IMG/VR virus record: IMGVR_UViG_3300027822_000016
Span: 1 to 55,299 of that record
Source of the DNA: a virus
Taxonomy: Duplodnaviria; Caudoviricetes
Direction: 5' to 3' (one strand)
DNA: 55,299 nucleotides
Shown: piece after piece, positions 22,525 through 55,299 of the stretch
How the letters are laid out: each line of letters opens with the position of its first letter
Numbering within the stretch: position 1 is the stretch's first letter
Made by a program: the position numbers and the translations under genes
Notes under the pieces: generated by a model
Told to the model about the DNA's origin: nothing
Database searches by the model: none
What the model saw: the letters and a program-made list of their open reading frames with translations, nothing else

Positions 22525-22639
22525 TTGTCCGTCTCTCCATTTGTTTACGACTGTATTTTATCGGGTCCAACACTTCTTGTCAACAGAAGAGAACAATAGA
22601 CTCGAAGAAAAACCCACTTTTCGTGGGTTTTTCTTCGCC

Positions 22640-22819
22640 CTACTCCCCGTCTAGCCCCCTGCACCACCTGTACCAGTCCGCGTTCCTCGACGCTTCCTCA
22701 ACACGACCAATGAACTCTTGGCGATCCTGTTCTGACATGTTTTCCAGTCTGGCTTGGGTTTTCGCTGCACGAGCGTCATATTCTTCTCTTGTCAAGATGT
22801 CGTCGTTCTCTTCTGGCAT
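22640..22819 (-). CDS. Hypothetical protein (59 aa)
   Basis: Manual translation MPEENDDILTREEYDARAAK...RGLDGE; has its own promoter, RBS and terminator. Confidence 0.75.
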   Translation of the reverse strand: MPEENDDILTREEYDARAAKTQARLENMSEQDRQEFIGRVEEASRNADWYRWCRGLDGE

Positions 22820-22899
22820 TTGGTCTGTCTCCCTATTTGCTTATGTATGTATTTTATCGGGTCCAACACTTTTTGTCAACAAAAGAGGACAACAAACAC

Positions 22900-23041
22900 A
22901 AAAAAGAGCGAGAACCTGTTGAAGAGGTTCTCGCTCAGTACGGGCAGTAAAGGCAACTCACCGCCCTAGATCCTAAATTCTGGAGTGAGGACCCTATTCA
23001 GATAGTCCTCGCCCAGCATCCAATCACTAAATTCATTACTG
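22900..23041 (-). ncRNA. Predicted small RNA A (about 140 nt)
   Basis: TGGCCG-N17-TAGAAT (extended TG) at 23048-23076; two internal hairpins; terminator 22900-22936; no credible ORF. Confidence 0.6.
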
Positions 23042-23100
23042 TCTTAAATTCTAGCACGACCTGCCCGAGACGGCCACAAAAAAAATGTTCCGGCAGACAT

Positions 23101-23166
23101 AAAAAAAGGGCAAGGACTTGTACAAGAAGTCCTTGCCCCGTGTGGAGTCAGTAAACGTATTTACTG
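23101..23166 (-). ncRNA. Predicted small RNA B (about 65 nt)
   Basis: TGGCCG-N17-TAAAAT at 23173-23201; 5' hairpin CAGTAAA-TACG-TTTACTG; terminator 23101-23138. Confidence 0.6.
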
Positions 23167-23223
23167 TCTTAAATTTTAGCACGATCTGCCAAAGACGGCC
23201 ACAAAAAATATTCCGGCGGACAT

Positions 23224-23412
23224 AAAAAAAGGGCAAGGAGCTATTGAAGAGGCCCTTGCCCTTTAAATAATCAACTCTTTGGCAGGTCTGGAGTGCATAG
23301 CTCCGCCTGCCGTCTAGAACCCTTCACAGAAAAGAGACGTACTCACGAAAGACAACGTACCTACCATGAGAAATGCAACGTATCTACTATGAAGTCGTTA
23401 ATTTCTTAACTG
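23224..23412 (-). ncRNA. Predicted small RNA C (about 190 nt)
   Basis: TGGCTA-N17-TAGAAT at 23419-23447; three internal TACGT-containing repeats; terminator 23224-23261. Confidence 0.6.
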
Positions 23413-23467
23413 TCTTAAATTCTAGCACGACCTGCCTGAAATAGCCACAAAAAATGTTCCAGCGGAC

Positions 23468-23601
23468 AAAAAAGAGCGGAGACCTATTGTGGGTAGGTCC
23501 CCGCTCGGCAAGGAATTTTTATGCAGCTAGCACTGCGCTTGCTTCCTTCTTGCAAAACACCTGGATAGACCCAATGAATCTACTCTGATGATTATTCCCT
23601 G
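23468..23601 (-). ncRNA. Predicted small RNA D (about 135 nt)
   Basis: TTGCCG-N17-TATAAT at 23608-23636; 5' CAGGGAAT can pair with ATTCCTTG; terminator 23468-23506. Confidence 0.6.
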
Positions 23602-23658
23602 TGTCGAATTATAGACCATTCTGGTCGATACGGCAATAAAAAATGTTCCCGTGAAATG

Positions 23659-23841
23659 TTATCGGGCTTTACGCTCTTTGTATTTCTCACACCACGGGGC
23701 ATGCTCCCAGTCGTGTTCTTCGTCATCCTTGTCGGATGCCGCTAGGAAAGGTCCGACTATGTATGTGGCAAAGAGCAGCTGCATGGCGTTGAGGATGAGC
23801 CACCACGACACGAATTTTATAAAGTAGAGAAGTATGGCCAT
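23659..23841 (-). CDS. Small membrane protein
   Basis: Hydrophobic N-terminus, charged tail, RBS present. Confidence 0.7.
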   Translation of the reverse strand: MAILLYFIKFVSWWLILNAMQLLFATYIVGPFLAASDKDDEEHDWEHAPWCEKYKERKAR

Positions 23842-23872
23842 AGAGTGTCCCTCTTTTGCGTATAAGGATATT

Positions 23873-24277
23873 CTACTGAACCATGTCGGAAACGATTTCG
23901 TCCATCAGTTTCTTATGTTCATTGGCCAATTCGGCGTAGTCTTTCTCCAAGCCGGTATAAAGACTTTGTAGGTCCTTTAATTTATCCTCCAACTTGACAA
24001 TTGTGTCGGCTTCTGAATCTGCTCCTCCGTACGGAAAATCGCCTTTCAGCTCATTACTTTCATCTTCAAGCCCTCGTATTTCGTGCTTCAGTTCGCTGTT
24101 TTCGGCGATAAAACCACCAATTTCGGCTTTTAGGTCGTCGTTTTCACTCCTTAACACTTCATTTTCGTACTTCAAGTCCTTGTTTTCGGCGGTCATTGAG
24201 CGGATCTTGGCCTTCATGCCTCGTGCTCTCGTGACGGGATCGTTGCTGTCGTATTCTGCGTCCCAGTACTCTGTCAT
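23873..24277 (-). CDS. Acidic coiled-coil protein
   Basis: Heptads ENKDLKY-ENEVLRS-ENDDLKA; first gene of a cassette. Confidence 0.8.
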   Translation of the reverse strand: MTEYWDAEYDSNDPVTRARGMKAKIRSMTAENKDLKYENEVLRSENDDLKAEIGGFIAENSELKHEIRGLEDESNELKGDFPYGGADSEADTIVKLEDKLKDLQSLYTGLEKDYAELANEHKKLMDEIVSDMVQ

Positions 24278-24397
24278 TGTGTGTCCTTCTCTCTTTTTGC
24301 TTATGGGTGTATTTTATCTGGTCAAACACTACTTGTCAACAAACGAGGATAATACGGCAAATAAAAAAGGAGACCCACTGGGGGTCTCCAAATACGT

Positions 24398-24625
24398 TTA
24401 CGCTCCCATCAGTTCGTCAGTGCAGAGTTTGATGAGTGCCGTTTTTTTGGCCAGCTCTTCTTCGAGCTGCTCGGCTTCCGCTTTGAATTCTTGTATTCTG
24501 TTGTTCAACGCTTCAAGGAGTTCTTCAATCTCCTCGTCGGTACCTGTTCTGTTGCTTAACTCATCCAGGAGTCCTTTTGTGTCTGAGTCTATATCTATAG
24601 TGGTACAAATGTGCTGGTCTGCCAT
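24398..24625 (-). CDS. Small acidic coiled-coil protein
   Basis: 75 aa ending just before a terminator. Confidence 0.7.
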   Translation of the reverse strand: MADQHICTTIDIDSDTKGLLDELSNRTGTDEEIEELLEALNNRIQEFKAEAEQLEEELAKKTALIKLCTDELMGA

Positions 24626-25448: not shown

Positions 25449-26999
25449 TCAATGGCATGACCGCATCGCGTGCGCGATCGAATGACGAGCAGTTGACCTG
25501 TGAGGCAAATCCGTGACAGCCAGCAGTTCCCCGTGATGGTAGAAAAACATACGTACAATGTCTTGATCGTCTTGTTTTGTAGACCGCAATGCCATTGCCA
25601 GCTCGACAGGATCAACCGATACGTCTATCGACGCTCCCCGAAGAGAAAATGGCATCCTCTGGTATTCGATCTGGAGGTCAGTCGGCACAAGACTGTATTG
25701 TACATACTGTAGTGTATGTCCTGATCGGCTGATCTCCAGGACTGGTCCACGCTCGGAACTCTCCAAAGTCAAGGACAACTTGACAGGCATTTCGTCGTCG
25801 TCAATCGTTTCCGCACGTAGCCGAGACAGCCCGTGCAACAACATTGATGCGGGGAACATGCACGAATTATACAATCCCATCCATTTGTGCAGTTCCGTCC
25901 ACTGGTCGTACTTGCCAGAGTCGTCATATTCGACTTTCCAGTCGTCTTTCGTTCCAAGATTTCTGAAAAACTTCGCCCAACCAGCCCAACCCAAATCTTC
26001 GGGGGACGGATTCGCACTCATGTAAGGATGGCCGGCTTTTAACAGTGAATCCACGGGCACAAAAGTTTTCGGACCTTCGCTCAGAAAGTTGCTGAAATTG
26101 GCGATATTCGCCAAGGCCACGATCTCGTCAAAATGCTCTGTGTCAAGATAAATCTCCCCTCCATCAGGCAATATCTCATCGATACTCCCGTAGAGAGTCA
26201 CTTTTCGTATTCGATCCGGATTTGCCACGAATAGTTCCAGCTCTGGTCCGTATGTCTGTTTGCTCTCGTCCGGCTGGTCGCGGTGGAGCCAAACAGCTTG
26301 TACCGTGTTCGGTGCATATTCCTCAGGGTTTGAGGGGTCGTACTGCACTCCTTCGATCATGCGAAGGACCTTTTTTGACATCGTTGGTGTTGCGTCCACA
26401 TCATGTACCAGCTGAGCGAGTAACCCGGATCGAAGCCCCCGGTAAGGGATGCCTGTGCGTTGTTCGCCGATCAGTTTTGGCCCGCGATACACGAGAGAGT
26501 ATGCAGGATGGGTGTCAATTCTCGACACTCGTATGGAGACATAGCCGCCCACAGCATCAGGGGCAGATGAGGCGACTGGATGGCATCCGGTCGGTACACT
26601 GCTAATGTCGACTGGAGTTTGGTAGTCCGTCTCCGGTCGACATTCCGGATGGAATGTCGCATATTTGTTGTTGTATCGCAGTACTGCAACGCCCTTTCCA
26701 CGATCGACTTTTCGCCCGCAGGAGAAGCATTCGTTCGAGGATACATTCGGTGTTGCTTCGTAGCTCAGTGAGACTTTTCGACAGCCGTTTCGGCAGAGCC
26801 ATCCGGCGGACGAAATAGTCTCTGTACTTTTATCGTGACGGTCTTCCAGGTGGAGTGAATCTGGATTGTTCCAGGCGCAGTGTTGTCGTAGGGCTTGGCC
26901 GTATCGGCAGTGTCGTCCGCAGTCGTAGCAAAAAACGTCGCGGTCGTTGACCACTGTCGAGAATAGTTGTCCAAGTTCTTCGCTGTTTTTTCGTTTCAC
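25449..26999 (-). CDS. Cys-rich N-terminus plus a domain paralogous to 30467..31438 (possibly sliding-clamp-like)
   Basis: CYDC, CRNGC, CFSC...HPEC; shares blocks with the 30467 ORF. Confidence 0.75.
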   Translation of the reverse strand: MKRKNSEELGQLFSTVVNDRDVFCYDCGRHCRYGQALRQHCAWNNPDSLHLEDRHDKSTETISSAGWLCRNGCRKVSLSYEATPNVSSNECFSCGRKVDRGKGVAVLRYNNKYATFHPECRPETDYQTPVDISSVPTGCHPVASSAPDAVGGYVSIRVSRIDTHPAYSLVYRGPKLIGEQRTGIPYRGLRSGLLAQLVHDVDATPTMSKKVLRMIEGVQYDPSNPEEYAPNTVQAVWLHRDQPDESKQTYGPELELFVANPDRIRKVTLYGSIDEILPDGGEIYLDTEHFDEIVALANIANFSNFLSEGPKTFVPVDSLLKAGHPYMSANPSPEDLGWAGWAKFFRNLGTKDDWKVEYDDSGKYDQWTELHKWMGLYNSCMFPASMLLHGLSRLRAETIDDDEMPVKLSLTLESSERGPVLEISRSGHTLQYVQYSLVPTDLQIEYQRMPFSLRGASIDVSVDPVELAMALRSTKQDDQDIVRMFFYHHGELLAVTDLPHRSTARHSIAHAMRSCH

Positions 27000-42482: not shown

Positions 42483-43106
42483 TCACCGACTACGATCTTG
42501 CCTTGTCTTTTTCGCAATCGCAGGAAAAATTGCCATCAGCGTCTCCATTTTCATCAGCCCAAGAGAGACACGAATCTTGCATGTGACATAGTCGGCAAGC
42601 TGTTGCCTTGCCTCCTGCTCACTCTGATCTTCGGCGATCCATTTTAGGTACTTCAACCCTCCGAACACTGTCGGTAGCCAGTCAGCCACCGCTACCAGAT
42701 CGTATATTTTGCCGCGGTACAGTGTGCCGTCCAGTGGGCGGGGGAAATTTTCACCTATATGCACGCGACCATCGACAACGTTGCTTACGTTTTGGGTTTC
42801 GAGTCGTTTCGGACTCCCGACATAAACGGTAAAAATGTCCCGCACCTCACCAAGACCACCGATTAACAGGGCACTTTTGTATATTGCGTCCTGGAGTGCC
42901 CCTTCCAAGATCAAACGACTGGATTCGGCACTCACTTTCTGGCTGCAGGATAACGAGATCTCTTTAATGTCGAGAGATTTGAGCAGTCTCTCGACGTTGA
43001 TGGCCGGGGTGTGGACGAGGTCACCGTTGTCGTCTCTCGGGGCATAGAATCCCATAGGAATGGGTTGTTTCTGCACTTGACTTGCGTCTTTTATAAGCAT
43101 TTCCAT
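42483..43106 (-). CDS. Hypothetical protein
   Basis: 207 aa abutting the resolvase gene. Confidence 0.7.
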   Translation of the reverse strand: MEMLIKDASQVQKQPIPMGFYAPRDDNGDLVHTPAINVERLLKSLDIKEISLSCSQKVSAESSRLILEGALQDAIYKSALLIGGLGEVRDIFTVYVGSPKRLETQNVSNVVDGRVHIGENFPRPLDGTLYRGKIYDLVAVADWLPTVFGGLKYLKWIAEDQSEQEARQQLADYVTCKIRVSLGLMKMETLMAIFPAIAKKTRQDRSR

Positions 43107-43111
43107 TTTAT

Positions 43112-43534
43112 TTAGCTCCCATCATTAATATTTTTCATACCTATTAAATCATTAATTATATGCCTTGCACAAGGCCAATTTTCCCGGCGCATGCTGGGAA
43201 TTCTCTCGCCAGTGAGCAGGTAGAATACATCTGGAGTGCGCCGACCTTTCACCACATCGCCTTGTTGCGCCACTATGGGGTAGACCGGTAGCCCGTACTC
43301 CTTCCACATGACATTTGTGACAATGTTATAAAAACTATTCCATTCCCCAGCGGATATCGATTTCGCCCCAGTCTTGCACTGCACAAGCAAAATTTGTCGA
43401 TGCCCCATTGCAATAACATCTGCGCCCATAGCACTTTTGCTCCCGGCAAAACGTGCCGCCACATACCCCACGTCCGACAAGGACGCAACGACGACACGCT
43501 CAAAAGCCGCACCTCTCTGATAATTCGTCATCAC
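43112..43534 (-). CDS. Holliday junction resolvase (Hjc-like PD-(D/E)XK)
   Basis: YQRGAAFER...AGSK...ADVIA...LVQCK. Confidence 0.82.
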   Translation of the reverse strand: MMTNYQRGAAFERVVVASLSDVGYVAARFAGSKSAMGADVIAMGHRQILLVQCKTGAKSISAGEWNSFYNIVTNVMWKEYGLPVYPIVAQQGDVVKGRRTPDVFYLLTGERIPSMRRENWPCARHIINDLIGMKNINDGS

Positions 43535-44583
43535 ACAACCTCCTTCGCCTTCATCTCGGCCTTGACTTGTTTTCTCCGATCCTTGAACCCTTCATGTCTG
43601 CAGATGGATGATGGGGATACGCCAATCTCCTCTGCAATGATGTTGTCCATTTTCATGCGTCCTTCATCGTCGAACCAGTTCCCGGATTGCACACCAGCGT
43701 CATCCAGCCAATCCTCAATTGCAGTACGTGCTGTGCCTCGTTTGATCGGGATCACACCCGCCGCAATTTCACGGGCTGATTGCAATGCAATTTCATTTTC
43801 ACGATCCAACCCCGCTGCAATTTCACGAGCTGATTGCAATGCAATTTCACTCCTTGGATTCTGTGCAATTTCATGCGCTGCCTCCTCTGCAATTTCATAC
43901 GCTGATTTCACTGCAATTTCATGCGATGATTTCACTGCAATTTCACTCCTCGGATTCTGTGCAATTTCAGGCTGCACCACAATTTCAGACTTCATCGCCT
44001 CAACATGACTGCGATTCACCACAGCAAAAAGCCTCGTCAACCGCAGCACGCCCTCGATTAAGAGGACAAATACTGTCGATGGCAGAGCTTCAAAAATCGC
44101 ATACCCCGCGTGCCCCACTACAAATAGGGCATACGACGCATTGAGTACGAGCGTGGAGATACCAACACCAAGCATCGCCCAGCGAAAAAGTTGCATCGCA
44201 CTGGCATGCTCCCTCTGCAGCTCTTTCTCGTCATCACCTGGCGAGAGCAGCACAAAAATCAAATTCACACTAACCAGAAAGAGCAAAAACGTATCTAGCA
44301 TTGGTGCTACCAACACTGACAAATTGTCAGGGACACCCAGATAGGCTCCCAATCCCTGGATATTTCGGAACGAAAAAAGATACGCGCACCAAATCAATGC
44401 CCCCGTTGTTGCAAACGATGTGAGAAACATCAATCCCAACACATCGTTACGGACATTGAAAATTCTGTTTTTCAATGTCCGTAACGAATGCACAAAACGT
44501 TGCTTCCGAGCGGCACGAGCGCTCTCACGCACCATTTTCCTCTCCCGTTTCTCCCTCATTTTCACCTGATATTTCGTCTCCAT
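43531..44583 (-). CDS. DUF2637/Spd-like membrane protein with EIA repeats and C-terminal HTH-like motif
   Basis: Four TM segments with SF..I..L, PMLD, LN and LP...E pattern; IAEEIGVSPSSICR at the C-terminus. Confidence 0.65.
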   Translation of the reverse strand: METKYQVKMREKRERKMVRESARAARKQRFVHSLRTLKNRIFNVRNDVLGLMFLTSFATTGALIWCAYLFSFRNIQGLGAYLGVPDNLSVLVAPMLDTFLLFLVSVNLIFVLLSPGDDEKELQREHASAMQLFRWAMLGVGISTLVLNASYALFVVGHAGYAIFEALPSTVFVLLIEGVLRLTRLFAVVNRSHVEAMKSEIVVQPEIAQNPRSEIAVKSSHEIAVKSAYEIAEEAAHEIAQNPRSEIALQSAREIAAGLDRENEIALQSAREIAAGVIPIKRGTARTAIEDWLDDAGVQSGNWFDDEGRMKMDNIIAEEIGVSPSSICRHEGFKDRRKQVKAEMKAKEVV

Positions 44584-44678
44584 TTTCTTCTCCTCTCCCC
44601 CTAAGAACCCCGAAGGGGTTGCCGTCGATTTTTATGCGGTCTGACCTGCACTTTTCAATTTTTGATTCCGGACAGTTC

Positions 44679-45716
44679 CTAGTCATTTCCTGGTCGGTTT
44701 CCCACTCGATCTCCCGTTCGGTTTCCCACCCGGTTTCCCACTCGATTTCCCGTTGGGTTTCCACCGTTCTCAATGCTCCTGCGCTTTGGCGGAGCCAAGG
44801 AGAAGAGGGTCATCGGTCGGTCCTTGGCAGCATGGCTTCCCAGTTTTCCCCATATTGCGGAGAGGGCGCCATGCTCGTAGTCGGGTGTGAAGAATGCCTT
44901 TTTTGTAGCGACGCCGACGTTAAAACCTGGGGGCATTTCGGTGTTTCTGTGGGTTTCCCAGATTGCTTTTGCGCATTCTTTGCCGCCGAATCCACGCCGG
45001 TCGTCTTCTGTAATGATGAGTAGGCGGGGGAATTCTCCTCCGGGGAAGCGTTCTCGCCATGCGTCTGGGGTGTTGTACAAATGCTTATATTTTTGCACTT
45101 TTTCTGCTAGTTTGCTTACTCCTTGTGTGCCTCTGTCCAGCTCAATGATGAGTGGCACTACTGTTATCTGCCCGTTGCGCACCGCGATGTAGTGCAGGAT
45201 CATGTCGGAGATCAGCAGTTGCTCATCACCTCGTTTTGTTTTGCGGTACTTGAACGCAATTTCGTGCTCCCATGCGTATGGGTCGCACTGGTCGCCCATT
45301 GTTAGTGCGATTTCGCAGAATCGCAGTCCGACCCGGTTGGCGAGGAGCGGATGGTAGGGCCATATTCTCCCTGTTGGGTTGTGCAGCCATCCACGGTCAA
45401 GCTTTGGATTCCCTTGGCATACTGCGTCGATTCCTTTTTCCGTCGCATGCCAGCAGACCCGATTTTTCTTGCCGACCTCGCCAGTGCGTTTGTTGATGTA
45501 CTCACCATTTTTCAGTGTTGTCAAGTGGTCGTTAAATTTACTCAGGGGTGATAAGCCCAGGTAGAAATGCATTTTTTGTAGTGTGCTGGAGGTGATGTAT
45601 CTGTGTTGGGTAAGTAACGTCACCGTGGTGGCTTGCCGCTCGGAAAACACAGATGCGCCACTTTCCCCCCCTTTCTCTGGTGGTGTCCCTCGCGGTTTTG
45701 TCTCTGTCGCTCGCAT
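44679..45716 (-). CDS. Replication-relaxation family protein (putative relaxase)
   Basis: L.QHRYITS winged-helix start, W.AT.KG, HPLLAN, WEHE, SD, IELDRGT, KVQKY, FPRLLII. Confidence 0.8.
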   Translation of the reverse strand: MRATETKPRGTPPEKGGESGASVFSERQATTVTLLTQHRYITSSTLQKMHFYLGLSPLSKFNDHLTTLKNGEYINKRTGEVGKKNRVCWHATEKGIDAVCQGNPKLDRGWLHNPTGRIWPYHPLLANRVGLRFCEIALTMGDQCDPYAWEHEIAFKYRKTKRGDEQLLISDMILHYIAVRNGQITVVPLIIELDRGTQGVSKLAEKVQKYKHLYNTPDAWRERFPGGEFPRLLIITEDDRRGFGGKECAKAIWETHRNTEMPPGFNVGVATKKAFFTPDYEHGALSAIWGKLGSHAAKDRPMTLFSLAPPKRRSIENGGNPTGNRVGNRVGNRTGDRVGNRPGND

Positions 45717-45746
45717 ACTTTGGCCCCATTTCGTGAAATTTCACAG

Positions 45747-45825
45747 GAAATTGCACATCCGTCATTGTCGTTACTCCGTCAACACATTTATTACGTAGTA
45801 TAGTTGTGCAATTTCATCCACGCCA
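45747..45825 (-). promoter_or_regulatory. Inverted-repeat-flanked core with promoter (candidate oriT/operator)
   Basis: GAAATTGCACA 45747-45757 and TGTGCAATTTC 45805-45815; TGGCGT-N17-TATACT at 45797-45825. Confidence 0.5.
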
Positions 45826-45840
45826 TCTAGAATTTTTGAC

Positions 45841-46402
45841 CGTGAAATTTCACGAGCTAATTTCATGAGCAATTTCACGAGCCAATTTCATGAGCAATTT
45901 CACGAGCCAATTTCATGAGCAATTTCACGAGCTGATTTCACAAGGCAATTTCACGAGCTGATTTCATGAGTAATTTCACGAGCTGATTTCACAAGACGAT
46001 TTCATGAGCAATTTCACAAGGCAATTTCACAGGCAATTTCACAAGGCAATTTCACAGGCAATTTCACAGGCAATTTCACGAGCAATTTCACTAGCCAATT
46101 TCACAAGGCAATTTCACGAGCTGATTTCATGAGCAATTTCACGAGCTGATTTCACAAGGCAATTTCATGAGCAATTTCACGAGCAATTTCATGAGCAATT
46201 TCACGAGCAATTTCATGAGCAATTTCACAAGACGATTTCATGAGCAATTTCACGAGCAATTTCACAGGCAATTTCACTAGCCAATTTCATGAGCAATTTC
46301 ACTAGCCAATTTCATGAGCAATTTCACTAGCCAATTTCATGAGCAATTTCATGAGCAATTTCATGAGCAATTTCACTAGGCAATTTCATGAGCAAATTTC
46401 AC
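45841..46402. repeat. Tandem array of about 45 (A/G)ATTTCA-core repeats, 12-13 bp period
   Basis: Counted by eye; units include GCAATTTCATGA, GCAATTTCACGA, GCTGATTTCACAA, CCAATTTCA. Confidence 0.97.
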
Positions 46403-49254
46403 AACATATAAAAGGGGAGGCCGTCCCCGCCCGCAATTGTCTCTTCCTCGCTACCATCTGCAACTGCACAATCCATCGTGGAATCTTCCACTACAACAGC
46501 ACTGTCATCTGCAATTTCATCTGCGATTTCATCTGCGATTTCATCTGCAATTTCATCCAAATCAAAATCGATGATCCGTTGCACAAGAGTTTTTTGGTGT
46601 CGTGCAACTGTCTCAAATGACACGCCTTCGTCATCCCGTAATACCGGATAAGGCAATTCTCCCGGTTCTCCGAGTATTGCTTTTGCGTCCAGTCCATGCA
46701 GTAGGTGGTGCTGTAGTGGATTCGCCTGGTGGGGCGAACGTGCAACTGCACACATCTGATACTGCAACCCAGTGAGTGGTATGTGGTCGGGGACGAGCAA
46801 TTTTCTCCGAAATTTATCTGCGTCATCCTGCGTGTTGAATGCGACCTGCAGCAAACTTGCATTCGCCAGTACAACGTCTTCTATTCCATAGGGGAGTTGC
46901 CCAAAATTTTGTGCAGCGAAAATGAGGGGCATATTGCTCTTGCGCCCTTGGGTCAGAAGGAGATTTATGGAGTCTCGGAATGCCCCGATAAATGAAGGTG
47001 CCTCATCCATAATAATGAGATGTGGTGGGTGTTCTCTGGCGTCCGCCATGTCAGCCCGGCCGTACACTGATTGCCGCAGGTACGCTGCAATAAATGCGCC
47101 GAAAATGTTTCCAACATGCTGGTCTTTTCCCGTGCGAAGTTGAATGAGCGTGATTTTCCCGCGTCCGACATCCATTTGCGGGGACCATCGAGTTTTTGAC
47201 GATCCCAACATGGTGTACATCGTGTCGTCTACTTTTGCGCTGTCGATGATCTCAAGCGGACCTTCGACAGAACTCCGCTGCACCCTTTCCCAATCTCCTG
47301 CGATGTTTTCCGGCAGAAGAGAGACGATTTTCTCCTGGAATGCAATTGATTTTGGGTCTTCTCGGACCATCGTGGCGAGTTGGAATACTGTGGTTTGGAT
47401 GTCTTCCGGCAAGCGGCTGTTTGCCACTACCAGTGAGGTGATGAGTACTTTGAGTACTCGCCTGATTTTAGGGGCATTGTCCGTCCTCCACTCACCGGCA
47501 GAACAAAGCGCACTGAACGCACCACTCGCGATGTTATCCACCTGTCCCCTTTTTGCACCCTTCGGCACGAATAGAGGATTCATCGGCTTCTGTAACGACC
47601 CCTCCTCTTTATTGTCCATGTCAATAACATGGAGTCGTTCGCGCATGTGCGCGCGTGCATCTGGGCCATCACAATCCTGGAGGTAGTAGTTCAGAAGTTT
47701 CGCTGTTTGTGCATCAGGCACGATAATTGTTGCGGATGCGTCCTCCCGAGAAGAGAGATACGTCACAACAGCGGACACAAGCGCACTTGTTTTCCCCCCA
47801 CCAGAAGGGGCCACAAGCATCCAAGCAACAAAATCCTGCAAATCCGCAGCTTTTCTCTGCCCATCAATCTCCCCAATAGGGAGAGCGTACCGGGGATTTT
47901 CACTGTCCCAATCCGGTAGGGAATTTTCGTCTCTCCCCTGGCCTGCAATTTCAGTGAGCGTGACCTTATTTATAGGGGGCAAAAAGAGCGGGGTGAGCGG
48001 TCCGATTGCCATTGTCCACGCGCGTTGTTTGTCGATTTTCGCTGTCTTCATACTGGTGTCGAATCGTCGAGCAGCGGTGGCCCCGGATGAGTGGCTACGT
48101 TCTTGGAGGATGTTTTGTCCGGAATCCAACGCCAGTCGAAGAGCGGCGCTGATGTTTGTGGCGATTTGTTGTGCGCGTGTTTCGGTTGCCGCCACAGAAG
48201 CGATACTTATGTCGCATACTCCTATGGGGTCGGTATTTGTGAGCTGTGCGCCTGCATCGCGGGCGGCTTTGCGAAATTTTTCTGCGTCTCCCTGGTCGAC
48301 TGGCCCAACATCCACTACGACCCACACAGCGTCGGTGTCGGAAAAGTTTTTCGCCGCTTTCTCAATCTGGACGTGTGGGTCTTGTATGGTGATGGATTCC
48401 AGTGCGCCAACGAAACTGTTGCTACGGCGTTGTGGATGGAAACTCGCCCGTGCGACGCCTACGTTTGCGTTTTTGTGTGGCCAGTCTTCGAGGACTCTCC
48501 CTGATTCTCGTCGTACCTGTATCCCTTTTGGCATTTGTGCGGCAAAAACTTCTTCCATGTCGCTTGTCACCTGGACATAAATAGAAAGTGCGTCTCTCCT
48601 TACCTGCGTGATCCCACGTACGACAGTATTCGTTTCCCCTGCTCGTAGTACCGCCAATCCCAAAACTTTGCTCGCCTCTTCCAGTGGAAGGACGTCAAAG
48701 TCGCTTTCCGGGAGGAGTTGTAAAGTGACGATTTCTTCTTTCGGATTTTTCCCTCGCCAAAACATGGCCACTGCGTCCCTCAGGTCAAATTCTTTCCCGC
48801 TCCGTACACGAGTCAATAACACCGCTATGGAGTACACAACGAGCAAAAAAATGGTCAGGATGATACAGACTGCGCCCCAGAAGAGTATGAGAAAAAGAGT
48901 TCGGTGCAGTGTCCATGCGATCATAAAAAAGACCAGTGCGTAAAACCCGCACACCCACAACATGGCCAAAAGAGAATTCAAACCGGAAGCCAAAAGCGTC
49001 TGCAAAAGAAACAGTCCGTAGACGAACGATGCGATCGTCGACGCCCACGTCACCGACCAGCGCACACTCGTGCCGGATGAGAGCATTGCCAGGAAAATGG
49101 GCACCCAAATAGAAATGGGCACATAGAGCCATACCTTTATAGGCACACTAGGTACAACCACTCGCTCATTACCATCTCCATCATTTGACAAAGATCGCAG
49201 CAAGCGAATGTTTGCAACGTTTTCGAGTAGTTCTTTAAGATCGAGGAGAGCCAT
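46399..49254 (-). CDS. VirD4/TraG/TrwB-like type IV coupling ATPase with N-terminal TM segments
   Basis: Walker A APSGGGKT, MNPL, Walker B IIMDEAP, GRKSN...FAAQNFGQL...VLAN; three to four N-terminal TM helices. Confidence 0.82.
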   Translation of the reverse strand: MALLDLKELLENVANIRLLRSLSNDGDGNERVVVPSVPIKVWLYVPISIWVPIFLAMLSSGTSVRWSVTWASTIASFVYGLFLLQTLLASGLNSLLAMLWVCGFYALVFFMIAWTLHRTLFLILFWGAVCIILTIFLLVVYSIAVLLTRVRSGKEFDLRDAVAMFWRGKNPKEEIVTLQLLPESDFDVLPLEEASKVLGLAVLRAGETNTVVRGITQVRRDALSIYVQVTSDMEEVFAAQMPKGIQVRRESGRVLEDWPHKNANVGVARASFHPQRRSNSFVGALESITIQDPHVQIEKAAKNFSDTDAVWVVVDVGPVDQGDAEKFRKAARDAGAQLTNTDPIGVCDISIASVAATETRAQQIATNISAALRLALDSGQNILQERSHSSGATAARRFDTSMKTAKIDKQRAWTMAIGPLTPLFLPPINKVTLTEIAGQGRDENSLPDWDSENPRYALPIGEIDGQRKAADLQDFVAWMLVAPSGGGKTSALVSAVVTYLSSREDASATIIVPDAQTAKLLNYYLQDCDGPDARAHMRERLHVIDMDNKEEGSLQKPMNPLFVPKGAKRGQVDNIASGAFSALCSAGEWRTDNAPKIRRVLKVLITSLVVANSRLPEDIQTTVFQLATMVREDPKSIAFQEKIVSLLPENIAGDWERVQRSSVEGPLEIIDSAKVDDTMYTMLGSSKTRWSPQMDVGRGKITLIQLRTGKDQHVGNIFGAFIAAYLRQSVYGRADMADAREHPPHLIIMDEAPSFIGAFRDSINLLLTQGRKSNMPLIFAAQNFGQLPYGIEDVVLANASLLQVAFNTQDDADKFRRKLLVPDHIPLTGLQYQMCAVARSPHQANPLQHHLLHGLDAKAILGEPGELPYPVLRDDEGVSFETVARHQKTLVQRIIDFDLDEIADEIADEIADEIADDSAVVVEDSTMDCAVADGSEEETIAGGDGLPFYML

Positions 49255-49257
49255 GTT

Positions 49258-49722
49258 TCAACTCCCGTGACGTTCGTCCGCGGCCTTACCCAGCTGAGCC
49301 AGTGCAGTGAGAGCGATTTGGTCCTGGGGATTTGCAGCGAGCATGCTATTGATCCGAGTTTCCAGCTCTTCTGGGGTCGCGCCATGCATGAGCAGCTGCG
49401 TTGCCATATTGATGACAGCCGGATCGTATTTGCTGAGAGGTTTCGGTGGAGTGCCAAAATGCAGCTCCACCGAACCTTTTGCGCCTTTTGCATTCACGAA
49501 CAGATATTTCGGCATGCGTGTTGTTTGACTGTTGTCAATGGCGACATGCCGACTGGTGTCCGTGTGCGTGCTGGCGTTGACACTGACCTCGCCGATATCA
49601 GTGTCAACGACATTCGTATTTTCCATGTGTGTGCTTTCTTCTGGCGGTTTTTTTCTGTGAAAAAATTCCAGGTAAATGAGGAACGCCAAGGTGGAGAGCC
49701 AGAGAATTTCAAGCCCTGTCAT
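49258..49722 (-). CDS. Single-TM membrane protein
   Basis: N-terminal TM helix; abuts the ATPase gene. Confidence 0.75.
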   Translation of the reverse strand: MTGLEILWLSTLAFLIYLEFFHRKKPPEESTHMENTNVVDTDIGEVSVNASTHTDTSRHVAIDNSQTTRMPKYLFVNAKGAKGSVELHFGTPPKPLSKYDPAVINMATQLLMHGATPEELETRINSMLAANPQDQIALTALAQLGKAADERHGS

Positions 49723-50053
49723 GCTCCACCCGGCCGGAAAGCGCCTTCGCCTTCGACTTTTCGATTTTTACCTCTGCCCGTGTTTTCGACGGACTCACGC
49801 ATTGTGCGTGGAATGCGTCATTTGTGAGCACGTCGATGACGTGACGAACTCGAGAAATTGCTTGCACAGCAACGTACATGAGAGTGACGCAAAGGAAAAA
49901 GAGTGCGTCAATCCCCTGGTAGCCGCTTCGGTAGACGCCAATGACCCCGGAGAGAAACGCTCCTGCTTCTAGCATGGCGAGAAAAGTGTTTCTTCGCAGC
50001 CATCCCGCTGGGAGTTGGTCAAGTTTCTCTGAAATGTCCTTGTACCACTTCAT
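49709..50053 (-). CDS. Small two-TM membrane protein
   Basis: Likely start MKWYKD at 50053 with RBS; two hydrophobic segments. Confidence 0.7.
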   Translation of the reverse strand: MKWYKDISEKLDQLPAGWLRRNTFLAMLEAGAFLSGVIGVYRSGYQGIDALFFLCVTLMYVAVQAISRVRHVIDVLTNDAFHAQCVSPSKTRAEVKIEKSKAKALSGRVEHDRA

Positions 50054-50149
50054 TTTTGTTCCCTTCCTATAGAAAAACGGAAGGGTACGGAAATAAATCC
50101 CGTACCCTATAAATATTTTACCCGATCGCATATTTAATTGCCAGATATA

Positions 50150-52048
50150 TTATTTCCCCCACCTGGAAAGACCAGTCGCAGCATCCAAATAGACCTTTGT
50201 ATCGACAACAATAGGCACACCAAAAAAATGTCCCTCCCCACGCATTGCCTCCGCAAACAACTGTCTCATCTCCTCCACATCCGCACGGTCAACACACACA
50301 ACAGTCTCGTCGTGAATCAAATCCCAAATATGTCCAGCTATGCCCATCTCCAACATTCTCAACACCGCTCTCGCAAGCAGCTCCCTCGCAGTCGACTGCA
50401 CAACATAATTCAAATTCCTGTAGGTCGCCAGCTCCCCATTCTCCTGGCGAGACACAGGAATTTTTCTCCCGACAAACGTCTCCACGTAATCAGTGAATCG
50501 TGAAAGTACATCCCTGAACTCTTTCGCCTTCGGATAACTCCGCCAAAACCCTTGTACCATTTTCTGTGCCTCATCCATGCCACACCCTGCACGTACATTG
50601 ACCGCATTTGCTCCTCCGCCGTACACAACCATAAAATTAACAATTTTTGCCAATTTTCGGTCGCAGCCAATGAGATCTCTCGTTTGCTGGTGAAGATCCC
50701 CGCCCCGGTCATACACATCAAGCATTCGTGGCTCGCGAGCAAGACTCCCAAGCACACGCAACTCAACCTGCGAAAAATCGAAACCGATAATCACCTGGTC
50801 ATCATTGTGAGGAAGAAACAGCCTCCGTAGCTTCGGGTCGACATTCATGACATTCGGATCTGCGGCACTCAACCTCCCCGTTATTGCACCGACAACGTGG
50901 AAAGTCGGATGCACAAACCCATTACCGTCCACCCGTTCCAAATATCCTTTTGTGGAGGTAAGAGCATTCACCTCCTCGACAACCTGCAGATACAGGCGCA
51001 CAAACTCTCTCCCTTTTGCATCCAACGGTTGCTGCCGAAGAAGCGGAACATCTTTTTTATTAAAACTGACCCGACCTGTCTCTGTCATCGGATACGTGTC
51101 AGTGTCCAGGCCGTGCTCAATAATCCACTCCCCCAGTCGTTGGCGCTGCTTATAGTCATACCCAGTAACATGTTTGATGCCCACGTTCAAGGGGACAATT
51201 CTAGCGTTACACTCCTCGTACACTTTCTCTGCCTGCGGAATATCAAGACGCATCCCCCGATGACGCATCCCCACTGTCACCGCATTCAGAGAATTCGCGT
51301 CCGCTTTGAGCAGCGCATTCGGTGCCCCCGTCTCCGCACACAGCCTATCGAGTATCCTCCGCACCGCGATAGCGTCCATACCTGCATAGATGAGGTACCG
51401 CTCGTTGTCCAGAGAGATGTTCGCCCATCCCCACGACTCTGCTTTTTTCGATGCCTTCTTGAATCCCGCTTCTCGACGACCAATGTCAGAAAGCTCCGTC
51501 TTCAGGCAGTCCGCCAGATTTCCGAGCTGGGGCATTCCGTAGCATGTGGCAATATGTTTGAGGTCATATTTTGAAAATTGCCTGCCTTTTTTTGTCCAGT
51601 ACAGGAAACTTTGTTCGCTGTTCATCCTGGCGATGACGTGTGTGTTCCAGTTTCTTGCGCTTATGTCGATTCCGAGACCGGCTTGTAGGGCATGGACGTC
51701 TGCGTCGGTATGCGAGCAAAATTGGTTGCGTTCGTCCTGTAAAAATGCTGATACGATCGACATTTGGTAGGGATCGTTCGTTCGGAAAACCCACGCGTCG
51801 GTTTTACTCCCTATCTGCACCAGGCGGAGCGAGAAATCTGGTGCCCAGAATGATCCTTGTTCTTCGGGGATGGCGAATTCTGTGTCGAGTCCCCACATGG
51901 GGTGTTTTTCTGTCGTCCGAGAGAATTTTTCCCATTCCGGCAGCCATTCTCGTGTGCCATGTTCGGGGGCATGGACGTGTACAGTTTCGCCTCCGAGGGA
52001 TGTTTCCCATGTTCGGACATATCCTTTTTTTAAAGTGCTGTTCGGCAT
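50150..52048 (-). CDS. DNA polymerase, family A, with 3'-5' exonuclease
   Basis: LDTE, YAGMDA, TGRLS, DFSQVELR, KIVNF..VYG, IHDE. Confidence 0.95.
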   Translation of the reverse strand: MPNSTLKKGYVRTWETSLGGETVHVHAPEHGTREWLPEWEKFSRTTEKHPMWGLDTEFAIPEEQGSFWAPDFSLRLVQIGSKTDAWVFRTNDPYQMSIVSAFLQDERNQFCSHTDADVHALQAGLGIDISARNWNTHVIARMNSEQSFLYWTKKGRQFSKYDLKHIATCYGMPQLGNLADCLKTELSDIGRREAGFKKASKKAESWGWANISLDNERYLIYAGMDAIAVRRILDRLCAETGAPNALLKADANSLNAVTVGMRHRGMRLDIPQAEKVYEECNARIVPLNVGIKHVTGYDYKQRQRLGEWIIEHGLDTDTYPMTETGRVSFNKKDVPLLRQQPLDAKGREFVRLYLQVVEEVNALTSTKGYLERVDGNGFVHPTFHVVGAITGRLSAADPNVMNVDPKLRRLFLPHNDDQVIIGFDFSQVELRVLGSLAREPRMLDVYDRGGDLHQQTRDLIGCDRKLAKIVNFMVVYGGGANAVNVRAGCGMDEAQKMVQGFWRSYPKAKEFRDVLSRFTDYVETFVGRKIPVSRQENGELATYRNLNYVVQSTARELLARAVLRMLEMGIAGHIWDLIHDETVVCVDRADVEEMRQLFAEAMRGEGHFFGVPIVVDTKVYLDAATGLSRWGK

Positions 52049-52196
52049 TTCCGGCTATCCTCTGTACTGTCGTCTGTGACGGATGATCGCGAGATCAAGG
52101 ACAGAGTCCCACTCTTTTTATGCGTTCGGGAGTGGGACTCTTCTTTTCCTGGATTATTGGTGTTCGCTACACTAACAGTGTCATATGAAACGTTTG

Positions 52197-52875: not shown

Positions 52876-55299
52876 TCACACTGGGCTGAGGTCCCACTCC
52901 GTGACCCACGATGTCACTCCATGTGACCAACGATGACGTATAGCGACGATGAGAAAATTTCTCTCAATACCCATACCGGTATTTCCCGAGGCGATCAGAT
53001 GGATCTTGTCCCCGAACCTCCGTATGTACGCCTGGTAGCGGTAATCGCTTCTCTTCGTCGCGGTGAATGAGATCGTGAGAAGCGGCAACGGATCTGCATA
53101 TTTTGCGAGAACCTGAGAGTTAAAACTTTCTGCATCGGCGACAGAGCTAAAAACAGAGTCCGTGTGTTGCCAGGTTTTTATCGCCCCAAGTGCTGCCTGC
53201 GACGCCGTATTATCACTGGCGACAACTCTCCCACCAAGACTCGGAGGAGGCTGCCCCTCGTTCCCTCTTACCGCGAGAACGAGCGTCTCCAAGTGGTCAA
53301 AATTTACCGGTGGGTGGGTGAACCATCCAGGGGCGAAAACGTCTTGCGCCCGGTTCGCTCCCGCGATTTGATACCCGACATCAAATGCGTTTGTACCGCT
53401 TCCTTGCACGATACCGTCATCCAGCGCGTGCATCCGAAACGGGGTGTTGGAGAATGTAAGAGTGGGTACACTTCCTCCTCCCGTTCCGACATTTCCAACC
53501 ATTGCACCGATGTGCGCGAGAAAAATTGTTGCTGTCGCTCCCCAGGGTGAGCCTAATACTGGCGGGAAGTTTCGTCCTGCTCTGGCGAGGGACCCGGTTT
53601 CCGGTTCGCCGTACCCTGAGACCGCGAGTGCTGTGCCTGATTCGATGCTGCCGTACCAGTCACGTAGGTAGATTGCGTGTATACTCCATGCTCCGCCTGA
53701 AATTTCATCGTCGTTGTAAAATGTTGTGAGTGGTCGGCTGGCGACATCATAATCTGTCAATGTCTTTGCGTATACACGTATTTTTCCCAGTTCAGCACCA
53801 GCGCCACGCAAATTATCCCACCCAGGAGGGGTCAACCACTGTTCAGCCTTGTCGTACACCGTTGAGACGATAAACAGGACAGCCAGATCGCCCACTTCGA
53901 TAAGTGTCGAAGGAACCTGCATCTCTATTGCATTTGCTACTCCAGCACTCGTCGACCGACTCGACTCCCCCTTCGTCACGATATTCGGCAGAAATGGTGG
54001 AATAGGAGTGACCACACGATTCACCCGCTCCCCGCGCCAACTATGCAGCTGCAAAGATTCGTAAATAAATTGTCCCCCTGGGGCATCAGATAATTCTATT
54101 GTTGGCTGATTCGCACTAAGCATGTGATTGTACAAAAAGCAAATCCTGCCCTCGTTCCCTTCACATACATACCCCAAGTCTGTGTTTTCATATACTCGTA
54201 GGAGGCTTAGAAGATTCCGCTGAGCGTACGCATGCCCCCCACAATTCAACACCAGGTTGGAATTGAACGGATTTGTGTTGCCCGCAGGGTGCAACAATCC
54301 CCCCTGGCGTAACGCGTGTCCCACCGCAACCGCAACGGACGTCCCCACACTCGCTTCCTCATCGACTCCGACAGTCGCGATACTGTCTACCTCTGTATTT
54401 GCGGCCAGAGAGAGGGGACCTTCCGCCTCCAAAACCGCAAACTTCCCCTCCGTCGGACTCACGGACGGGATAACACTGGTCACACGCCCAGTCCAAATCA
54501 CATCAGCGTTTGTGAATCCGCCCCACGTATTCCAGACGAGAAATTCGTCCCATTCAGGAGCTTCTTTTGTCCGCCACTGGCTATAAAGACCGTATTTCTG
54601 TCCCCCCGTGCCGAATGCCACCGGATTGTCCTTCAGATCCCCATTGATAAAAATGTTCACGTTTGAGCCAGAAACGAACAATTGTAATGTCAGTTCTGGT
54701 GTGTCCTCTATCGTGAATTGGCTTGTTTTTGAAAGAGATCCTGCAGTTTTCGTCCAGTGTTGTATGTTCAAAAAATTTGATATGTCGACTTCTGCGAGGA
54801 CAAGTCCGTAGTTTGAGGCGTCTGTCAGTCTGTAGACGATCCCCAGGTCTGACCTTATGTCCTTCTTGATGTATGTAGCTTGCATGAAGCATGCATCAAC
54901 ACCGAGGTCGACGGCGTCAATCGAACGATAATCTGTCGACGCCACATGCGGACGCAACGGACGAGCAACACCTGACCCACTCCGGTAATGCCCCAAATTC
55001 TCTATCGCCTCCCACGTATTCCCCACCTCATCAAGCGACCCATTCAACAAACCCGTACCACTAAAAAAGTCCTTCGCCAACAACACCGGATCGGTGTCTT
55101 CCGTCCCCCCAATCTGCACACGCAACAATCGACCCTCATCCAGAGAGAACGGCGGAGTATTCAAAGGAGAGGCAGCATTGAAAAACGAAAACCGGTCGTC
55201 CGAATTGTCAAGAGTCGCACGAAACCTCCCCGGACTGACCTTCCCGTTCAATTGACTCGCGCTATCCCGCCCCGCACTCGTCTCCGCACCCAAAACATA
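52876..55299 (-). CDS. Large minor tail protein, 3' part (begins at 1066 across the junction)
   Basis: Open frame to the window end; Gly/Ser/Thr-rich beta content; C-terminal GDKIHL...IRHRW...W tail-hub-like ending. Confidence 0.85.
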   Translation of the reverse strand, partial: YVLGAETSAGRDSASQLNGKVSPGRFRATLDNSDDRFSFFNAASPLNTPPFSLDEGRLLRVQIGGTEDTDPVLLAKDFFSGTGLLNGSLDEVGNTWEAIENLGHYRSGSGVARPLRPHVASTDYRSIDAVDLGVDACFMQATYIKKDIRSDLGIVYRLTDASNYGLVLAEVDISNFLNIQHWTKTAGSLSKTSQFTIEDTPELTLQLFVSGSNVNIFINGDLKDNPVAFGTGGQKYGLYSQWRTKEAPEWDEFLVWNTWGGFTNADVIWTGRVTSVIPSVSPTEGKFAVLEAEGPLSLAANTEVDSIATVGVDEEASVGTSVAVAVGHALRQGGLLHPAGNTNPFNSNLVLNCGGHAYAQRNLLSLLRVYENTDLGYVCEGNEGRICFLYNHMLSANQPTIELSDAPGGQFIYESLQLHSWRGERVNRVVTPIPPFLPNIVTKGESSRSTSAGVANAIEMQVPSTLIEVGDLAVLFIVSTVYDKAEQWLTPPGWDNLRGAGAELGKIRVYAKTLTDYDVASRPLTTFYNDDEISGGAWSIHAIYLRDWYGSIESGTALAVSGYGEPETGSLARAGRNFPPVLGSPWGATATIFLAHIGAMVGNVGTGGGSVPTLTFSNTPFRMHALDDGIVQGSGTNAFDVGYQIAGANRAQDVFAPGWFTHPPVNFDHLETLVLAVRGNEGQPPPSLGGRVVASDNTASQAALGAIKTWQHTDSVFSSVADAESFNSQVLAKYADPLPLLTISFTATKRSDYRYQAYIRRFGDKIHLIASGNTGMGIERNFLIVAIRHRWSHGVTSWVTEWDLSPV
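55044..55299. repeat. Terminal direct repeat/assembly overlap, copy 2
   Basis: Matches 1-256. Confidence 0.97.

Follow-up and report, generated by a model that had tools for sequence, protein, structure and literature searches.

A gene cassette between polymerase and resolvase in a tailed-phage genome

The IMG/VR virus record IMGVR_UViG_3300027822_000016, a tailed phage of 55,299 bp that we analysed over its full length (the window), carries on its minus strand a cassette encoding a membrane-anchored ATPase (P0001), a Replic_Relax-family nuclease (P0002) and a further membrane protein (P0003), together with a long non-coding repeat array. Behind the family-A polymerase PolA, two small genes, P0005 and P0004, are followed by P0001, the array, a leader region, P0002, P0003 and an Hjc-like nuclease (Table 1). 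The original prediction for this DNA had described a minimal DNA-transfer module whose parts lie co-oriented between DNA polymerase and resolvase, and all of the parts listed were found there, on the minus strand. Of the span given for it, 43531-50053, the parts stood, whereas the end at 50053 did not: this is an internal ATG of the P0005 open reading frame (ORF), which extends to 50131.

The genome itself is that of a complete tailed phage, as had been claimed. A Pfam scan of the window ORFs recovered the large terminase TerL, portal, ClpP-like protease, HK97-type capsid and tail collar, as well as a PrimPol/D5 protein, an SF2 helicase and the family-A polymerase. Positions 1-256 and 55044-55299 overlap over 256 nt with 98.8% identity, and the ORFs at both ends of the window are the halves of one tail-fibre-like gene of 1077 aa, which is intact in the related contigs L005 (99% identical) and L002. 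As the ends overlap and the end ORFs form one gene, we consider the genome closed at about 55.0 kb. IMG/VR classes the record as linear and CheckV estimates its completeness at 83%, despite the closed genome. By large terminase, the nearest cultured phages are Thermobifida phage P1312 (50% identity) and Streptomyces phages, and the polymerase matches mostly phages of Actinomycetota. The window has a G+C content of about 50% and its DNA was found in marine metagenome runs; no closer habitat than marine metagenome is claimed. Depth is very high in run X1, probably the source sample, while run X4, with a share of 0.11, was left out of account. A six-frame profile search of the window at E<=0.01 found no AAA_10, CagE_TrbE_VirB, Phage_integrase, Resolvase or AAA_31 (ParA type) domain, in agreement with the earlier statement that no VirB4, integrase or ParA was recognised; a serine recombinase was likewise not found.

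Table 1 Features of the cassette and its flanks in the window. aa, amino acids; HTH, helix-turn-helix; TRF, Tandem Repeats Finder.
Feature	Position	Strand	Basis
DNA_pol_A (family-A polymerase)	50150-52048	-	Pfam, E 1.1e-44
P0005, small membrane protein, 140 aa	49709..50131	-	ORF and translation; alternative start 50053
P0004, small protein, 154 aa, N-terminal membrane segment	49258..49722	-	ORF; hydrophobic residues 3-21 (hydropathy scan)
P0001, membrane-anchored P-loop ATPase, coupling-protein-like, 951 aa, acidic C-terminal tail	46399..49254	-	translation
Four in-frame motif copies GATGAAAT[T/C]GCA encoding DEIA x4 in the ATPase tail	46505..46557	-	TRF, period 12, 4.4 copies, 95% matches
Terminator-like hairpin and T run within the last ATPase codons, before the array	46414..46428	-	consensus scan, pattern match only
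Non-coding array, 557 bp, 44 head-to-tail units, core TGAAAT(T/C), one orientation	45846..46402	-	TRF and unit parse
P0002 leader with nested inverted repeats, 125 bp; candidate operator and/or nick region	45731..45855	-	putative function
Palindromes CGTGAAATTTCACG (two perfect)	45842-45855 and 45731-45744	-	inverted-repeat scan, 100% complementary
11-nt inverted repeat GAAATTGCACA, bracketing a 47-nt AT-rich core upstream of P0002	45747-45757 / 45805-45815	-	inverted-repeat scan
P0002, Replic_Relax / MOBC-family nuclease, 345 aa, probable N-terminal winged helix	44679..45716	-	Pfam PF13814
Second 12-bp repeat, 5.8 copies, at the relaxase gene 3' end, encoding GNRV repeats	44694..44762	-	TRF and translation
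P0003, 350 aa, 4 membrane segments, (x)EIA repeat linker, probable C-terminal HTH	43531..44583	-	translation
Motif copies TGAAATTGC in the P0003 coding sequence, commonly every 24 nt	43765..43969	-	array orientation
Hjc/Mrr-like nuclease (resolvase)	43112-43534	-	E 3.5e-6

A co-oriented motif field spans coding and non-coding DNA

A repeat array of about 560 bp had been predicted upstream of the nuclease gene, and the array identified here agrees with this in size. Its 44 units are of two lengths, 12 nt (23 units) and 13 nt (21 units); TRF describes it by a row of period 12 with 44.7 copies (score 617) and by a period-25 row that scores 657. No ORF of at least 50 aa lies between 45803 and 46339. 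Recoding of TGA, by which the array would become coding, was considered and dropped: table 11 gives good readings of the ATPase and the adjacent genes, and several of the units contain TAG.

The repeat motif reaches beyond the array. About 60 co-oriented copies of the 9-base motif TGAAATTGC are present, 44 of them in the non-coding array and the rest in the two flanking genes and in two palindromic versions. The sequence GTGAAATT occurs 33 times in the window compared to 3.3 occurrences expected, a number reached by none of 100 shuffles, and all 33 copies fall within the 2.7 kb from 43765 to 46402. TGAAAT[TC] is found 69 times on the minus strand, with 63 of these copies in three 1-kb bins of this region, and 11 times on the plus strand of the whole window. 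In the ATPase gene, the copies encode the DEIA repeat of the C-terminal tail, and the orthologue in L002 is without this DEIA-coding repeat.

Within P0003, the core TGAAATTG is fixed at all ten EI(A/V) sites, and in nine of the ten the next C is also kept, giving TGAAATTGC. The residue before the motif varies (S, P, H, Y, R or N) and its codon nevertheless ends in T in 10/10 cases. Genome-wide, the counts of the corresponding codons are GAA 221 : GAG 238 and ATT 134 : ATC 160 : ATA 95. The motif is conserved at the DNA level in P0003 and resembles a DNA-level site; the fixed codons provide no clean test of selection because the repeat units share descent.

A Replic_Relax nuclease with an inverted-repeat leader

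P0002 belongs to the replication-relaxation family, as predicted: its direct Pfam match to Replic_Relax reaches 44 bits at a cut-off of 25.3 (E 3.6e-11), and the relatives P0159 and P0160 as well as the protein of the Actinomycetota locus L023 (see below) likewise match this family. In an alignment of eight sequences, 25 columns are invariant, among them H122, N127, D142, E152, D171, E192, D194 and T197. The acidic residues E152, D171, E192 and D194 are identical in 8/8 sequences, the pattern of a PD-(D/E)XK-type acidic core. At the N terminus, the winged helix is indicated by a match to HTH_34 that stays below the cut-off (E 0.0034). When P0002 was compared with plasmids by tblastn, 70 were matched, 68 of Streptomyces and two of Kitasatospora. 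PADLOC assigned 0 families to P0002-P0005 and recognised no other mad gene.

The DNA upstream of P0002 has the layout of a MOBC-type origin of transfer (oriT), in that the direct repeats of the array (45846-46402) border on a region of inverted repeats (45731-45855); a function as oriT is putative. At the other end of the gene, the short 12-bp repeat recurs with about 3-6 copies across the window and the relatives L007 and L008. In L007 (3052-3103) and L008 (3704-3771) it is non-coding, lying after the stop codon, with a conserved stretch and then a G+C-rich hairpin behind it.

A divergent membrane-anchored ATPase

P0001 combines about four membrane segments (residues 37-153; membrane segments were counted by hydropathy scan throughout) with the Walker motifs GGGKT at 485-489 and DE at 750-751, that is, an N-terminal membrane anchor and a cytoplasmic P-loop region with Walker A and B, as in type IV coupling proteins. 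Among 61 aligned sequences, G487, K488 and E751 are conserved in at least 90% and D750 is invariant. Of these 61 relatives, 23 match TrwB_AAD_bind, 12 DUF87, 11 T4SS-DNA_transf, 11 TraG-D_C and four FtsK_SpoIIIE; P0001 has no FtsK_SpoIIIE match in Pfam. Used as a single sequence against the PDB, P0001 gave no match, and the profile of the 61 sequences has TrwB as its top match (E 3.6e-14), followed by a 'DNA helicase' entry, 9x1l (E 3.4e-12), and then DotL, HerA and FtsK; HerA and DptH chains are among the matches. By Atlas feature matching, the closest clusters (0.96-0.97) are coupling-protein-like and mostly from Actinomycetota.

Judged by sequence alone, P0001 is a divergent member of the FtsK/HerA/coupling-protein superfamily. 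The label VirD4/TraG-like given in the original prediction therefore needs to be split: a membrane-anchored P-loop ATPase is present, whereas the family name draws on remote and contextual evidence, with no direct family match. Grouping of the ATPase with HerA-type defence ATPases had been named among the outcomes that would count against the prediction, and on this point the result is not clean, as the best direct model is the PADLOC defence model mad8 (E 3.2e-7). This match points to the shared FtsK/HerA/coupling-protein superfamily and no further. A predicted complex of ATPase residues 440-951 with P0003 residues 262-350 scored 0.00, which is evidence neither way.

Membrane protein P0003 and the small genes

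The four membrane segments of P0003 span residues 48-190, and this N-terminal domain aligns with proteins of L007 and L008 (BLASTP E 6.8e-12). The protein had been predicted to be DUF2637-like. That it is a membrane protein was confirmed, while the DUF2637 label was not: with a cut-off of 22.8 bits for PF10935, P0003 reaches 12.1 bits (E 0.19) and its relative P0158 17.1 bits (E 0.0054). An Atlas feature score of 0.89 to DUF2637-named clusters serves as a lead only, and the papers found on DUF2637 did not deal with its function. The probable HTH domain is suggested by matches below cut-off, namely HTH_31 and HTH_23 in the L008 homologue (E 0.0014) and TetR_N in P0003 (E 0.24). Repeat number varies in nature, as two near-identical relatives show: the repeat linker of P0167 (351 aa) is 36 residues longer than that of P0168 (315 aa).

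P0005 has one or two membrane segments, with a hydrophobic stretch at residues 71-95, and matched no family in Pfam, NCBIfam or PADLOC; for P0004, no family was found in Pfam, PHROGs, NCBIfam or PADLOC. Compared to the orthologues in L002, dN/dS is 0.13 for the ATPase P0001, 0.21 for P0004 and 0.13 for P0005, and all three genes are under purifying selection.

The ATPase-nuclease pair is conserved and occurs in conjugative contexts

Relatives of the ATPase were found in two near-identical contigs, in L002 (80% identity) and in four short metagenome contigs, L006-L009, where the ATPase is 26-30% identical (28-30% in L007-L009) and the G+C content is 57-64%. In all four of the latter, the ATPase gene is followed by Replic_Relax, after which the L006 contig ends. 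In L007 and L008, a third gene comes next; it codes for the N-terminal membrane domain known from P0003 and for a probable HTH, and contains a long stretch of 12-bp repeats. The array motifs differ between the lineages, and the long array is coding in L007 and L008. That three genes are conserved across lineages of about 28% identity speaks for a real function of the cassette. L006 shares one small gene with the window; two genes upstream of its ATPase homologue, at 806-1570, it encodes a 254-aa protein with a C-terminal WhiB domain, for which the six frames of the window contained no match.

The P0001 family is very rare, with only five of 1.84 billion representatives matching at E<=1e-10. 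Against 50,697 GenBank phages, neither megablast with 43000-52100 nor tblastn with P0001, P0002 and the L023 relaxase gave a match. Scans of IMG/VR with P0164 and with the relaxase alignment yielded no confirmed locus, and a scan of genome contigs with the ATPase yielded a single weak one (L003).

Homologues of the ATPase at E<=1e-6 are present in 16 of 401 sampled Actinomycetota genomes. Among the best five, four have Replic_Relax directly downstream of the homologue, and in three the same strand carries a VirB4-like AAA_10 gene 5-7 kb upstream; Replic_Relax occurs in 0/14 control genomes. One of these Actinomycetota loci, L023 (profile E of the ATPase homologue 8.1e-39), encodes a tyrosine integrase too. 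Next to the integrase, a caspase/CHAT protein and a UvrD-type helicase are encoded, and a 12-bp repeat of 5.4 copies (L023 14208-14272) lies inside the 5' part of the ATPase homologue gene. On the Streptomyces plasmid NZ_CP107773.1, the gene in front of the relaxase encodes an ATP/GTP-binding protein whose alignment with P0001 covers 589 residues (BLASTP E 4e-11); this pair clusters with a lytic transglycosylase/C40 peptidase and another large ATPase, and a ParB-N protein comes after the relaxase.

For placing P0001, this homologue context is more decisive than the sequence. Because the homologues adjoin Replic_Relax and lie near VirB4-like ATPases, the ATPase/Replic_Relax pair looks conjugation-derived, and the earlier proposal that a coupling ATPase and a relaxase of conjugation-related type are combined here is supported by the context in the best Actinomycetota genomes and by the pair on the Streptomyces plasmid. 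On the reading that we favour below, the cassette would have been taken from actinobacterial conjugative elements.

A possible mobilisation cassette and its alternatives

Taken together, we favour a reading in which a marine phage carries a conjugation-derived, mobilisation-type DNA-processing cassette with an oversized oriT-like binding array, and we give this reading a probability of roughly 0.4. The repeats would be coated by the winged helix of P0002 and/or the HTH of P0003, with the palindromes acting as operators of the relaxase/P0003 operon. P0003 could tie the repeat stretch of the phage DNA to the membrane beside the ATPase, the relaxase would nick in the adjoining inverted-repeat region, and the ATPase might then feed DNA to a channel that is not phage-encoded, most plausibly the type IV secretion system (T4SS) of a resident conjugative element. 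In this way, the phage genome would be mobilisable as well as packageable. As the phage is without VirB4, the model needs a helper T4SS in the host. A further-reaching version, which we offer tentatively and hold to be rather unlikely, has two routes of spread, by virions and by a resident T4SS that delivers the whole phage genome into receptor-less cells, with the array and the membrane-tethered HTH protein forming a new kind of relaxosome.

A number of observations weigh against mobilisation. No channel is encoded, AAA_10/VirB4 not having been found in six frames, and the Pfam scan, which covered 40 ORFs, revealed no lytic transglycosylase. The cassette is located among replication genes, and the best PHROG of P0002 is 9381, 'replication initiation by nicking' (E 2.5e-8). 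With neither an integrase nor a partition gene found, there is no sign of a long-lived donor state. P0001 itself matches no Pfam coupling-protein model (PF02534, PF10412, PF12696) above the cut-off and no NCBIfam coupling-protein model, where the sole row is VirB4_CagE at E 0.055. Its best direct model match in any library is mad8 (residues 458-788), and of its ten nearest representatives one matches TrwB_AAD_bind and eight match no family. The profile of its four close relatives found nothing meaningful in the PDB (best E 0.16), and the Atlas model, with a predicted template-modelling (TM) score of 0.50, gave structure matches of TM 0.40-0.47 by query. With regard to the DNA, the 44-unit array is far larger than the five repeats of plasmid pAD1, no comparable array is present in NZ_CP107773.1 or L023, and, the long array of L007 and L008 being coding, the 12-bp periodicity could in part reflect a peptide linker.

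The location and the PHROG match would suit a role in replication or maintenance. Here, a nick made by Replic_Relax in the array or close to it would prime rolling-circle replication or help to resolve replication products, P0003 would tether the genome to the membrane via the repeats, and the ATPase would serve as a motor for segregation or translocation, for instance in a plasmid-like carrier state. Since no integrase was found, any lysogeny would be plasmid-like, and the authors of the Bacillus phage reports, in the portions covered, read Replic_Relax and FtsK/SpoIIIE as plasmid replication/segregation genes (PMC9658697, PMC7685451). The ParB-N protein behind the relaxase of the Streptomyces plasmid fits as well, and co-oriented motif copies suit a directional translocase. 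On the other side, no ParA-type NTPase was found, the phage already possesses PrimPol/D5, SF2 helicase and PolA, and the bacterial homologues of the pair reside in T4SS-type clusters and not beside replication genes. We also know of no replication role for a coupling-protein-like ATPase with four transmembrane segments, and regard this explanation as possible, though on balance unlikely. If, instead, a HerA/MAD8-like ATPase and a PD-(D/E)XK nuclease formed a conflict module for defence, exclusion or anti-plasmid activity that attacks competing phages or conjugative elements, this would account for the mad8 match, the DndH match of P0001 (E 0.0051), DUF87 in 12/61 relatives and the HerA and DptH chains among the wide-profile PDB matches; MAD7-MAD8 is described as an ATPase-nuclease module belonging to the MADS defence system (PMC13662399). 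Yet the nuclease is of the Replic_Relax/MOBC type and no known defence nuclease, PADLOC left P0002-P0005 without a family, the bacterial homologues lie beside VirB4-like genes, and mad8 may merely share the superfamily P-loop core. The array and the membrane-anchored, likely HTH protein would be left unexplained, and we consider a conflict module very improbable.

The array might also be without any function in cis. It would then be a copy, produced by slippage or decayed, of the tetrapeptide-coding repeats in P0003 or in the tail of the ATPase, and the proteins would act alone. One frame of its units reads (H/R/S/C)EIA, resembling the P0003 linker; besides, the coding nature of the long array in L007 and L008, the differing repeat number of P0167 and P0168 and the common descent of the units, by which fixed codons become weak proof of selection, all fit such an origin. 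What makes it improbable to us is that the 9-nt core does not change even where the codon beside it specifies another amino acid and still keeps the third-position T, that the relaxase promoter region has palindromic forms of the motif on either side, that a non-coding 12-bp repeat also follows the stop codon of the relaxase in L007 and L008, and that 12-nt and 13-nt units are mixed in a single orientation across all 557 bp. An assembly chimera, finally, with the cassette or array mis-joined to the phage, could be suspected, given that the whole array is held by one contig only, that no contig of the independent runs spans it in full, and that the L002 contig stops 30 nt past the ATPase stop and the L005 contig within the ATPase. 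Against this stand the synteny with L002 and L005 in the order of PolA, two small genes and ATPase, X3 contigs, from an independent marine run, that bridge both array edges (45758-45888 and 46355-46534), zero-mismatch pieces from inside the array in a further run (X2), relatives of relaxase P0002 and of P0003, 65-99% identical, in other samples, and the closure of the genome on itself, so that the chance of a chimera is next to nil. The exact number of array units is uncertain because no single independent contig spans the array and L002 ends so soon after the ATPase. In L002, the sequence behind the ATPase (12790-12850) resembles a short repeat of another kind (TGCAAC/TGCAAT); the assembly of this phage probably broke off at an array of its own.

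Relation to known systems

In the enterococcal plasmid pAD1, oriT lies between the TraG-like gene traW and traX, with a large inverted repeat beside the short repeats. The MOBC prototype is TraX, a relaxase of the PD-(D/E)XK type that has a winged helix at its N terminus and binds a set of five direct repeats located 70-120 bp away from the nick site (PMC12857230), and PF13814 is the MobC relaxase family of CONJscan (PMC5357655, Table 1). The phage cassette is similar to this system, as far as described in the former report, in combining a Replic_Relax/MOBC-family protein with a probable winged helix and a candidate direct-repeat site. It differs by having 44 repeats plus intragenic copies instead of five, and by the missing T4SS, which pAD1 encodes itself.

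A compact module of coupling protein and relaxase without a mating channel is also found in streptococcal integrative and mobilisable elements (IMEs). According to PMC5357655, class 8 of these elements contains a VirD4 coupling protein, a MobC relaxase and a serine integrase and is read as hitch-hiking on a helper T4SS. In contrast to these integrated islands with their integrase and canonical VirD4, the carrier here is an integrase-less complete phage and the ATPase is far from VirD4 models; the phage adds the membrane-anchored, likely HTH protein and the giant repeat array. The Actinomycetota T4SS clusters (NZ_CP107773.1, L023) share the homologous ATPase directly upstream of the replication-relaxation protein, yet they add a VirB4-like ATPase and a cell-wall hydrolase, and L023 an integrase too, and they have neither a long array nor a P0003-like gene after the relaxase.

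Streptomyces TraB mediates FtsK-like transfer of double-stranded DNA, independently of a relaxase, as a membrane-associated ring ATPase that recognises nearby co-oriented short repeats, the clt repeats. A membrane ATPase with a nearby cluster of short co-oriented repeats is common to both systems. P0001, however, lacks the FtsK_SpoIIIE match, which only 4/61 of its relatives show, no gamma-type winged helix was seen at its C terminus, and a relaxase-family gene is part of the conserved trio; in these points the cassette departs from the TraB type. With the MAD7-MAD8/HerA modules, as far as PMC13662399 describes them, the cassette shares a P-loop ATPase of the same superfamily encoded beside a nuclease, with a mad8 match at E 3.2e-7. 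The nuclease is of another family, though, P0001 is membrane-anchored and has homologues in conjugative contexts, and the array is without counterpart.

Among phages, Bacillus phage Novomoskovsk (MT422786, Andromedavirus) carries annotations for FtsK/SpoIIIE, Replic_Relax, TrbC/VirB2 and a ParG-like protein close to a resolvase, and according to the Novomoskovsk paper, phage Bolokhovo has the same gene set. There, too, a function of the set would be a prediction from the genes alone. Unlike in the present phage, the Novomoskovsk ATPase has 427 aa, TRF detected no tandem repeat, and tblastn showed no similarity to P0001 or P0002 at E<=1e-3. The 263-bp 'intergenic' gap at 43402-43665 of this genome (L026), in front of the 91-aa Replic_Relax gene, reads like the N-terminal winged helix of that protein; the gene start is probably mis-annotated. 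In the covered parts of the literature on phage-plasmids and conjugative phages (including PMC12282955 and PMC7969092), a combination of coupling protein, MOBC relaxase and repeat array in a tailed phage did not occur, although Supplementary Table S4 of PMC7969092, on phages that carry conjugation or plasmid genes, may list cases; in the paper on the conjugative prophage Phi1207.3, the word 'relaxase' does not occur in the text that was available.

Some observations concern the phage more generally. Thermobifida phage P1312 (L028) has an annotated FtsK/SpoIIIE ATPase at 22485-24527 and an integrase, and the phage shows no BLAST similarity to P0001. At 25449-26999, the window contains a cysteine-rich ORF of 516 aa with several CxxC pairs near the N terminus and no Pfam family. 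Mapping of a replication origin by GC skew was dropped, as the skew tracks gene orientation only.

Implications

Two suggestions of the original prediction went further than the data support. A spread across hyphal septa with a Spd-like role of P0003 finds no backing, the samples being marine, the G+C content about 50% and DUF2637 below threshold. To speak of an undescribed system is too strong as well, because a coupling protein with a MOBC relaxase is known from IMEs and a similar set is annotated in Novomoskovsk. New here are the carrier, a closed tailed phage without integrase, the divergent ATPase clade, the membrane-anchored, likely HTH protein and the field of 60 motif sites on one strand across coding and non-coding DNA.

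If the cassette does serve mobilisation, the line between phage and conjugative routes of gene flow would be blurred. The phage may offer a testable case for virion-independent delivery of a virus, or else for a conjugation machine that is re-used in phage DNA metabolism, and the array would provide a ready handle for binding, nicking and mobilisation assays.

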